From assembly GCF_000026545.1 (NCBI RefSeq), contig NC_011601.1: a DNA stretch of 64,000 nt; one strand, given 5' to 3'. Positions 6,001 to 9,000 of this stretch are shown one piece after another (the stretch's first letter is position 1; the number at the start of each line of letters is the position of its first letter). The position numbers are program-made. This stretch comes from Escherichia coli O127:H6 str. E2348/69 (lineage in GTDB: Bacteria > Pseudomonadota > Gammaproteobacteria > Enterobacterales > Enterobacteriaceae).

Positions 6001-9000
6001 GCTATAGGGGTGCTGAGACCGATAACGCATTTTGTAAACCATCCCTGCGAGAGCGAATATTCCGATATCTGGTTATTAATTTATGATTCTTGTTTTATGT
6101 GATCGTGGTAGCGTTAATTTCGCTCATATATCATTGTAAAATATGAGTTTTATATGAACTATAATGTTTTCGTGATAATACGCTGCGTGTATTAGGCGGA
6201 AAAAACTGATCTGGGGGATGTAGAAACTCAAGGAAGTAGCTATAATGCGCCCCGCCTCCATGTAGCAATCGAGGCGCGGAAGATCGTCGTCTCCGGTGAG
6301 GCGGCTGGACTTCAAATCCAGTTGGGGCCGCCAGCGGTCCCGGGCAGGTTCGACTCCTGTGATCTTCCGCCAAAATGCCTCTCCTGAACTCTCCCGACGT
6401 TAACAAAACCCCTTCTAATCCCTTATATATCAGGCTTTCTTTGTGTCCAGAGATCAATCGACTCAACCTGTATCAAGTTGCTTTTGGGGATACTTTAGGG
6501 GGTATTATTTCCTCTTGAAATATTAGCCTCCCATAATAGGAAAAAGGTAATACATAACAATGGTTTTTAACAGCATCTTTGTTATACAAGGGGGCATTGA
6601 GGATATCAGGAAAAATCTCAAAATCGGTGCGGACAGGAAACTACGTGGGCAGCAAAAACGTATGGTAACGCCGGGAAATGCAACGCCCACCAGTCGGGCT
6701 AATCCACCACTCCAATCGTGGTTCGCAGTACTACACACACGATTACCGGGCTATACAGGAGCGGTTTGGTCTGAAAACATCCATGCCGCGTAAAGGTAAC
6801 CGTTACGACAACACCTCAATGAAAAACTTATAGTAAACGCTGAAGAATGAAACTATCGTTTTAATAACCGGGATGAAGCCATCTAAGTAATACGGAAATA
6901 CATTGAGATTTTCTACAACCATCAGCGCCGCCACTCCCGTCTGGGGAATATCTCCCTAGTAGCCTTCAGGAAAAATATAACCAGATAACTGCGTAAAAAA
7001 AGAACAAATGGTGGTGTCCGCTATTGCCAGTATACCTGAGTTTACTGCCTTTCAGATTATCACAATCAATAGCGAACAGACTTTTGAGCTCTGTGCGCTT
7101 TTAACAAAACGTCTCTTTCTCCACTTTCACCGTATAATAATACATTATTTATTACCCCTCCAATAAAAACCGATATTACTAATCACATTTATTACCACGC
7201 AATTTGATATCGGTTTTTATTAGTTGGAAAACAAATAATCAATACCGATTAATCGTTTTAAATTAGTTGGTTACCCTTTCTTCGATTGCTCATAGGCAGC
7301 TAAATGATCTTTTAGTGCCTGTGCAAGGGGCGGTAGTCCACCAGGCCCGGATGCCTGTCCACTTGTCGGTGGCGGTGGTGCCTGACGGGTTGGCTTAAAG
7401 CTTACAGTCTCAGACGCTTTCGATAGTTCATAGGCAGCTAAATGATCTTTTAATGCCTGTGCAATGGGCGGTAAAGGTCGGGATGCCCCGGATGCCTGTC
7501 CACTTGTCGGTGGCGGCGGTGCCGGACGGGTTGGCTTAAAGTTTACAGTCTCAGACGCTTTCGATAGTTCATAGGCAGCTAAATGATCTTTTAATGCCTG
7601 TGCAATGGGCGGTAAAGGTCGGGATGCCCCGGATGCCTGTCCACTTGTCGGTGGCGGCGGTGCCGGACGAGAGGGAGTAAATGAAGTCACCTGGCTGCTC
7701 ACATTAAAAATCGTCCTCGCATTAACATTCGACGAACCTGGAGAAAAGGGGGAATGAACTCTCACCGGAGTAAGACGAACAGCCTGAGGGGCTACAGAAA
7801 ATCCAGTTCCCCCCGCAGAGCTCACTCGACTTGCGATACCTACAAGCTGCCGCCCTAGTGTAGAAGCAGCGTTACTAATTCCATTAAGCATAATTTATGC
7901 CTCTTTATATCTAATCTTGGCTAACTCTCATATATATCAAAACGAATAATAAAATGATTTTTAAATCAAAATAAATTAAAATCCTCGTACCCAACCACTA
8001 ACATTCTCATGGAACAAACTGTACAATAACTGACTCGACTCATCATCCATACAGCCCTCCAAAGCCTTTATCGCATCATTTTTTCTATTTAATCCAAATA
8101 AGATAATAAATTCTAAATGTGCGATATCTTTTTTATCAGGTATAATTTGTGGGAATACATTCAGGATAGCTTCCGCATATTTGGGAAGCTTATGGTTTGC
8201 CGCAGCTACAGCCGCCCACACCAGTATCTTATTAGCAGAAATATCATTAACCATAAAAATTAAAAACTACGGTTAGAAATGGTTGAGACCAGATCTTTTA
8301 TCGTTTTCAACATTCCACTTTCTACGTTAACATAAGCAGAATATTGCTGAACCGCAAACTGCAACTCTAACATTTTTTCAGGGTCATTAACCAAATCGGT
8401 GCTATTAAGTAACTCTGGCACAGAATCGCTCAGCGTTTTACCTACTTCACCCATTTGTTGAGTAATTTCAGATAAATTCATTAAATTTCCCTCAGAAGTT
8501 AATAAAATAATTTTTTTTTAACTATTTACGTTCATTACGAACCAAATTCCGTCTTCTGTTTCTTGCTGCACGGCACCCTTTCTGATGAAGTAATTAAACA
8601 ACTCTTCGCGCTTTTGACGTTCTGAATCTGAACCAATCTTAGATTTCATCGCACTGATTTTCTTAATACCCGAAAAGTGGTGATACAACTCTTCGAGCAA
8701 ACGAGTCAGTGATAAAACAGGGCCGTTAAGCCCTGTTTGGTTACGTGCTTCAAAAGAGCACAAAATCAGTTCTTGTTCATCCAGTCTGTACGCTAATGAA
8801 AAAAAAGGTGTCTCAATCCGCCATCCGATAAAAAAGGCACTGCCACAAAGAAACTCCTTCTGTATTGTGTACCCTTTTTGTTCAAGATAGTAATTAAACA
8901 CTTCATCATTAAACGTATCGACCATGATCAATTACCCAGCTAAGCGAGCCGCTTGCCCCATGCGATTAATAAGGTCAGTAAGATCACGGGCTGTCGTTGT

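Follow-up and report, generated by a model that had tools for sequence, protein, structure and literature searches.

The window, by which we mean the whole 64,000-nucleotide stretch of DNA analysed here, is 100% identical to the Escherichia coli E2348/69 chromosome and contains the LEE together with its selC-side border. The tRNA gene selC, whose upstream neighbour is yicJ, is followed by a short piece of K-12 backbone; judged by direct comparison with MG1655, the island junction is the end of backbone identity after position 6387. On the far island side, K-12 MG1655 backbone is back near 42,011-42,069. The island measures roughly 35.6 kb, and roughly 900 bp separate the selC junction from espF. 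The features of this border are:

6278..6372, plus strand: selC, tRNA-Sec (UCA), the integration target (ARAGORN; Rfam RF01852, 83.8 bits; RefSeq annotation)
6373..6387, no strand assigned: 15 nt of K-12-identical backbone after selC (direct comparison with MG1655; the K-12 blast match stops at 6387)
6388..6613, plus strand: island arm, corresponding to the leader between selC and the P4-type tyrosine integrase gene in other selC islands (ST12468 and 933L matches)
6614..6675, plus strand: 62 bp from inside an IS630-family transposase gene, NLKIGADRKLRGQQKRMVTPG (nucleotide and amino acid matches to IS630 copies)
6681..7039, plus strand: IS600-like (IS3 family) remnant of 359 bp, corresponding to IS600 895-1264 (pairwise alignment to an intact 1264-bp IS600, L008:707-1970)
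6681..6996, plus strand: orfB pseudo-coding part of the remnant (PGAP pseudogene coordinates, locus 1982-2297; codon alignment; three-way alignment)
7013..7039, plus strand: right terminal inverted repeat (IRR), 24/27 identical to the IS600 IRR (alignments)
7040..7270, no strand assigned: flank from the IS right end to the espF stop codon (repeat search; RNA fold)
7271-7891, minus strand: espF, the first LEE gene

At the far island end (window ~42011-42069, compared with K-12 L009:833-2463), K-12 backbone returns inside or after setC, and about 1.6 kb of K-12 sequence, comprising the yicT pseudogene and most of setC, is absent save for a 61-bp piece. Because this K-12 DNA is absent, the LEE is no clean insertion relative to K-12. 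At the near end, espF of E2348/69 (NZ_CP059840.2 H4J01_RS00430) is listed in RefSeq as a pseudogene ('incomplete; missing C-terminus'), and in the window (7271-7891) the 206-aa ORF is complete, three proline-rich repeats included; the pseudogene flag is probably an annotation artefact arising from repeat-number variation.

The preliminary description of this locus had placed a degenerate IS3-family transposase remnant at 6373-6880, citing the likeness of the peptide LIHHSNRGSQYYTHDYRAIQERFGLKTSMPRKGNRYDN to the core of OrfB transposases. IS3-family elements use a DDE transposase and a copy-out/paste-in pathway, and the likeness of the peptide to IS3-family OrfB proved to be real. The peptide is encoded at 6699-6812 on the plus strand, within a 51-codon ORF (6678-6833), and the frame-repaired translation of the surrounding remnant matches NCBIfam NF033516 (IS3 family transposase) with E=1.6e-22 over profile positions 277-369 of 369, as well as Pfam rve, rve_2 and rve_3. 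The NF033516 score is 80 bits against a whole-protein cut-off of 160 bits, a shortfall to be expected when only a quarter of the length is present. The tblastn check proposed with that description, run with the IS600 OrfB frame as query, likewise returned significant IS3 similarity (summed E=6e-36, in two reading frames).

The closest element found among E. coli complete genomes, PLSDB plasmids and a collection of 5.8 billion proteins is IS600. As reference we used an intact copy from plasmid pUTME-2-2, annotated with a programmed frameshift, whose ends were set from its inverted repeats. Window positions 6681-7037 align with IS600 895-1262 at 313 identical columns out of 368 (85%), and the match reaches 7039 with the last two bases; blastn of the remnant against IS600 gives about 85% over 368 columns at an E value of about 1e-117. 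The remnant comprises the C-terminal 109 orfB codons, a 43-nt 3′ untranslated tail (40/43 identical to IS600) and the right inverted repeat, and its conceptual protein is identical to IS600 OrfB at 79 of 103 positions (77% at the amino acid level).

The location first given, at the selC-proximal LEE border, stands: the remnant is at the LEE's espF end, some 310 bp beyond selC. The interval has to be redrawn. IS3-derived DNA occupies 6681-7039: the left 308 bp of the original interval (6373-6680) are, by alignment, not IS3-derived and consist of backbone, integrase leader and an IS630 piece, and the remnant runs 159 bp past 6880, in a second frame, to the IRR. The frame had also been described as broken by stop codons on both sides. 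This holds downstream, where TAG TAA follows at 6831-6836; the upstream TAA (6666-6668) is not a break in the transposase frame, because it lies inside the foreign IS630-derived fragment and IS600 homology starts abruptly only at 6681. A search for terminal inverted repeats, suggested at the same time, gave a split picture when set against the 5′-TG...CA-3′ ends of IS3-family elements. The IRR is present at 7013-7039, with its terminal CA mutated, and the left inverted repeat (IRL) of IS600 has no match with up to 3 mismatches in the 64 kb, nor do other pieces of IS600 occur elsewhere within the 64-kb window. Since the left end is deleted, only the right flank of the remnant (GTT at 7040-7042) exists to show one half of the short (3-4 bp) target-site duplication typical of IS3-family elements.

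The first 894 bp of IS600 that are missing from the remnant include the left repeat, orfA, the frameshift site and the first catalytic Asp, and although IS3-family elements join two overlapping ORFs, orfA and orfB, by programmed -1 frameshifting, orfA and the frameshift window (IS600 1-894) have no counterpart anywhere in the window. In the part that is left, the second catalytic Asp is changed to Asn (AAT at 6714-6716; HSDRGSQY to HSNRGSQY), and the Glu codon of MESFW is changed to Lys (6822-6824) just before the TAG TAA stops, so that the DDE catalytic triad is not intact. In-frame stops in the E2348/69 remnant number three, TAA at 6885-6887 and TAG at 6957-6959 coming after the TAG TAA; there are also two frameshifting deletions, one of 10 nt after 6850 and one of 1 nt after 6968, and the terminal dinucleotide CA of the IRR reads GA (C to G at 7038). 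Judged by these lesions, the remnant is predicted to be unable to make a transposase or to be moved by one supplied in trans, and it should likewise be unable to serve as a two-ended transposase substrate. We therefore regard window 6681-7039, with a probability of about 95%, as an inert 359-bp piece from the right-hand end of an IS600-like insertion sequence, the left 894 bp of which would have been lost by later illegitimate deletion or rearrangement.

The remnant is already known as an annotated pseudogene and is in that sense ordinary. RefSeq/PGAP has a pseudogene at window 6681-6996 under the name 'IS3 family transposase' (frameshifted; internal stop; incomplete; missing N-terminus), and the entries H4J01_RS00435 (E2348/69) and ECH74115_RS34290 (O157:H7 EC4115) are the same object. 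Unlike the description given here, that annotation ends with the coding homology; it does not give the name IS600, and it passes over the IRR (to 7039), the integrase leader and the IS630 scrap. The original E2348/69 and EDL933 LEE papers are said to mention an IS600-like sequence at this end; our full-text search of the open literature found no paper describing the remnant.

Between the backbone and the IS600-like remnant lie two pieces of other ancestry. The longer one, the leader arm, is 84.3% identical over 236 columns to the ST12468 selC island (L004:4001-4235), in which the int coding sequence starts at 4295, and 85.5% identical over 131 bp to the leader of O157 933L; in both islands the homology ends about 50-60 bp short of the position of the int start codon. 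Window 6388-6613 thus resembles P4/CP4-type integrase leaders (933L of O157:H7 and the ST12468 selC island) at about 84-85% identity and, as in those islands, lies directly after selC, but the integrase gene that follows the leader in those islands is absent in E2348/69. A tblastn search of the whole window with both integrases, from ST12468 and 933L, yielded no integrase coding remnant (E>0.2).

The shorter piece, at 6614-6675, is 82% identical to a PGAP-annotated IS630-family pseudogene (L006:1501-1562) and 85.5% identical to the IS630 copy in pWR501, whose ORF matches Pfam DDE_3 (E=2.6e-23); by tblastn it is 72% identical over 25 aa (E=8e-6). This likeness of 82-85% is to an internal piece of the transposase gene of IS630 (Tc1/mariner-like IS630 family, Shigella), just after the first catalytic Asp region, but the scrap is only 62 bp long and lacks both ends and a TA duplication. 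Its two edges, at ~6613/6614 and ~6680/6681, are abrupt switches with little or no homology, and as far as the alignments tell they are illegitimate junctions, not IS termini. The IS630 scrap is a second, independent IS scrap, separate from the IS3 remnant. It is unannotated in RefSeq and common to O157:H7. A 77-aa ORF at 6560-6793 matched no Pfam family. On the Shigella virulence plasmid pWR501 (L010 2839-3795), an IS600 copy lies within the 5′ end of an IS630 copy, with a 318-aa read-through ORF. We rejected this plasmid as a source of the same IS630-IS600 junction: the two pieces are near each other there, but in reversed order and about 455 bp apart.

The same mosaic is present in O157:H7. 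Strain EC4115 shares 826 bp with E2348/69 (window 6402-7227) at 97.9% identity, with 4 differences in the 460 bp of the IS630/IS600 part. Common to both strains are the two junctions, the D-to-N substitution, the GA terminus, the TAG TAA and TAA stops and both deletions; the TAG at 6957-6959 of E2348/69 is TGG in O157. Because O157:H7 has the same mosaic and nearly all of the lesions, the mosaic is older than the EPEC1/EHEC1 split. Among 5426 complete E. coli genomes, the mosaic was found in 383, at 97.9-100% identity, and the espF-escF region was matched in 696, which count as LEE-positive; the leader-scar-espF arrangement is fixed in the mosaic-bearing genomes (383/383). For other LEE lineages, exemplified by O111 strains, the match to the window begins only at about 7138-7161 and the scar is absent, and the sequence from 7040 to about 7137 is present only in selC-type LEEs.

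In O157 the mosaic lies outside the attR of 933L. The attR in EC4115 (L003:6499-6557) duplicates the final 23 nt of selC and has another 36 nt besides; it is followed or interrupted by ISEc8 (within L003 6558-9000), which has a clean 8-bp duplication (CAACAAAA), and beyond ISEc8 the EC4115 DNA continues as window 6402 onwards. Since the O157 flank follows the 933L attR, the leader, scar and espF were already beside selC when 933L integrated upstream in tandem.

On the espF side of the remnant, an imperfect palindrome of 96 bp (7144-7239) with 33-nt arms that are 82% complementary lies just beyond the espF stop codon. As a minus-strand RNA it folds with -41 kcal/mol (z=-4.9), and it is probably the terminator hairpin of the espF (LEE4) transcript. 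Non-selC LEE lineages start matching the window within or just before this palindrome. A 19-nt direct repeat occupies 7209-7227 and 7252-7270.

Several origins of the IS600-like sequence can be weighed against one another. A chance resemblance of an ORF in AT-rich intergenic DNA, with no mobile-element ancestry, has a negligible probability. It could draw on the 51-aa ORF, which by itself matches Pfam rve only with E=4.4e-4, under the gathering score, but it is already refuted by the 368-column, 85% alignment to IS600 (E about 1e-117), which continues through non-coding DNA to the exact IS terminus, and by the NCBIfam and tblastn matches above. The identity of the parent element is a finer question. 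Among E. coli complete genomes and plasmids, blastn found no closer intact parent IS, with nothing above about 85% over the full remnant, and the search of 5.8 billion proteins returned only IS600-group fragments of about 70-75% identity, the top match (P0001) being IS600 with an internal duplication. Apparent '90-95%' matches were set aside, as they seem to be IS600 aligned over the better-conserved 3′ part only; the one row inspected (H61) spans just 6852-7040. The remnant is collinear with positions 895-1264 of IS600 (IS3 family; 1264 bp; Shigella/E. coli), from the C-terminal part of OrfB (rve core, rve_2/rve_3 tail) through the 3′ tail to the IRR (24/27), but differs from it in its sequence (85% nucleotide and 77% amino acid identity), in the 894 absent bp, and in its mutated catalytic residues, stops, two frameshifting deletions and CA-to-GA terminus. 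ISfinder treats elements as iso-forms at about 95% amino acid or 90% nucleotide identity or better. The remnant falls under both values for IS600 proper; 'IS600-like' is the most fitting name for it, as it belongs to the IS600 group and is not an IS600 copy. Its coding part differs from IS600 by 17 synonymous and 21 non-synonymous changes (dN/dS 0.31, from ~101 stop-free codons of the 103 aligned), which, for a small sample, suggests that part of the divergence dates from a gene still under selection. Because this ratio is lower than expected from wholly post-mortem drift, the parent was probably a diverged IS600-group member rather than IS600 itself, although about 100 codons give only a lean in that direction. 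A heavily decayed copy of IS600 itself, with all of the 15% divergence due to drift after inactivation and no distinct IS600-group parent, is unlikely. IS600 is the best match everywhere, with nothing closer found, the non-coding tail is 40/43 identical and many of the lesions are plainly degenerative; against this, the dN/dS is 0.31 and not about 1, and the two LEE lineages are only about 1% apart in the remnant, so that 15% of neutral drift would need far longer than their split implies.

We found no sign of function in the remnant. Stops and frameshifts interrupt every frame and no open frame survives, an Rfam scan matched only tRNA-Sec, and a scan for promoter-like and terminator-like sites gave no excess over shuffled sequences. 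These results, and the LEE lineages at pheU/pheV, which work although the scar is absent from them, make it very improbable that the fragment has been domesticated, whether as a promoter, a terminator, a shortened regulatory peptide or an sRNA acting for espF or selC. Its retention at 97.9-100% identity in 383 genomes, while E2348/69 and O157 agree at only about 95% in the espF-escF region, might be taken to indicate such a role; LEE effector genes, however, diverge fast, and in lineages that separated recently neutral DNA, too, should show high identity. The history of the whole flank is harder to read. In the preliminary description the IS scar was seen as consistent with an island that had arrived or been remodelled by mobile-element activity. 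The remodelling part agrees with a scar that abuts a 62-bp IS630 fragment and a truncated integrase leader, and the remnant is a fossil of IS-driven remodelling of the selC-proximal LEE flank; arrival of the island by IS activity is not supported, because the DNA directly after selC resembles a tyrosine-integrase island arm and the IS fragment is one-ended.

Starting from the demonstrated identity, extent and lesions of the remnant, from junction sequences that switch abruptly from int leader to IS630 to IS600, and from their sharing with O157:H7, we infer the following order of events. An island with a P4-type integrase module would have occupied selC. The insertion of an IS600-like element would have put its right end at 7039/7040, some 230 bp past the espF stop codon, and an IS630-family element would also have been present. 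One or more later illegitimate deletions or rearrangements would then have removed the integrase gene, most of both ISs, including the left 894 bp of the IS600-like one, and the DNA between them. Only the leader, a 62-bp scrap of IS630 and, joined to it, the final 359 bp of the IS600-like sequence would have survived. That remodelling of the flank deleted an integrase gene is, from this reconstruction, most likely. The flank allows two larger readings. At a little under even odds, the 650 bp after selC (integrase leader, IS630 scrap, IS600-like tail) would be a three-layer fossil of a selC-type LEE losing its integrase and becoming fixed, with a P4-type entry of the LEE, or of an element travelling with it, followed by IS insertions and illegitimate deletions before the split of EPEC1 (O127:H6) and EHEC1 (O55/O157:H7). 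There is also a substantial minority chance that the scar was left by another selC-integrating element (933L- or SHI-2-like), positioned between selC and the LEE until it was lost by deletion, in which case the scar would not belong to the mobility module of the LEE itself. With about 84-85% identity, the leader at 6388-6613 resembles those of unrelated selC islands and of 933L, and selC takes tandem elements, as shown in O157, where 933L with its own attR lies upstream of the flank; on the other hand, the arrangement is fixed in all 383 mosaic genomes, which places its linkage to the LEE before the divergence of EPEC1 and EHEC1, a point that is not decisive. If the 650 bp are indeed a three-layer fossil of integrase loss, this would explain the immobility of this LEE type and the stacking of later selC elements (933L) upstream of it.

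Nothing evident connects the remnant with type III secretion or virulence, and beyond a tidy annotation its significance is small. Along the selC-proximal edge of the prototype EPEC LEE, as it confirms, dead pieces of mobile elements have accumulated, and exact junction coordinates can now be given for them. As a derived marker shared by O127:H6 and O157:H7, the scar is usable to recognise selC-type LEE lineages, and it supports a single remodelling of the flank before these lineages diverged.
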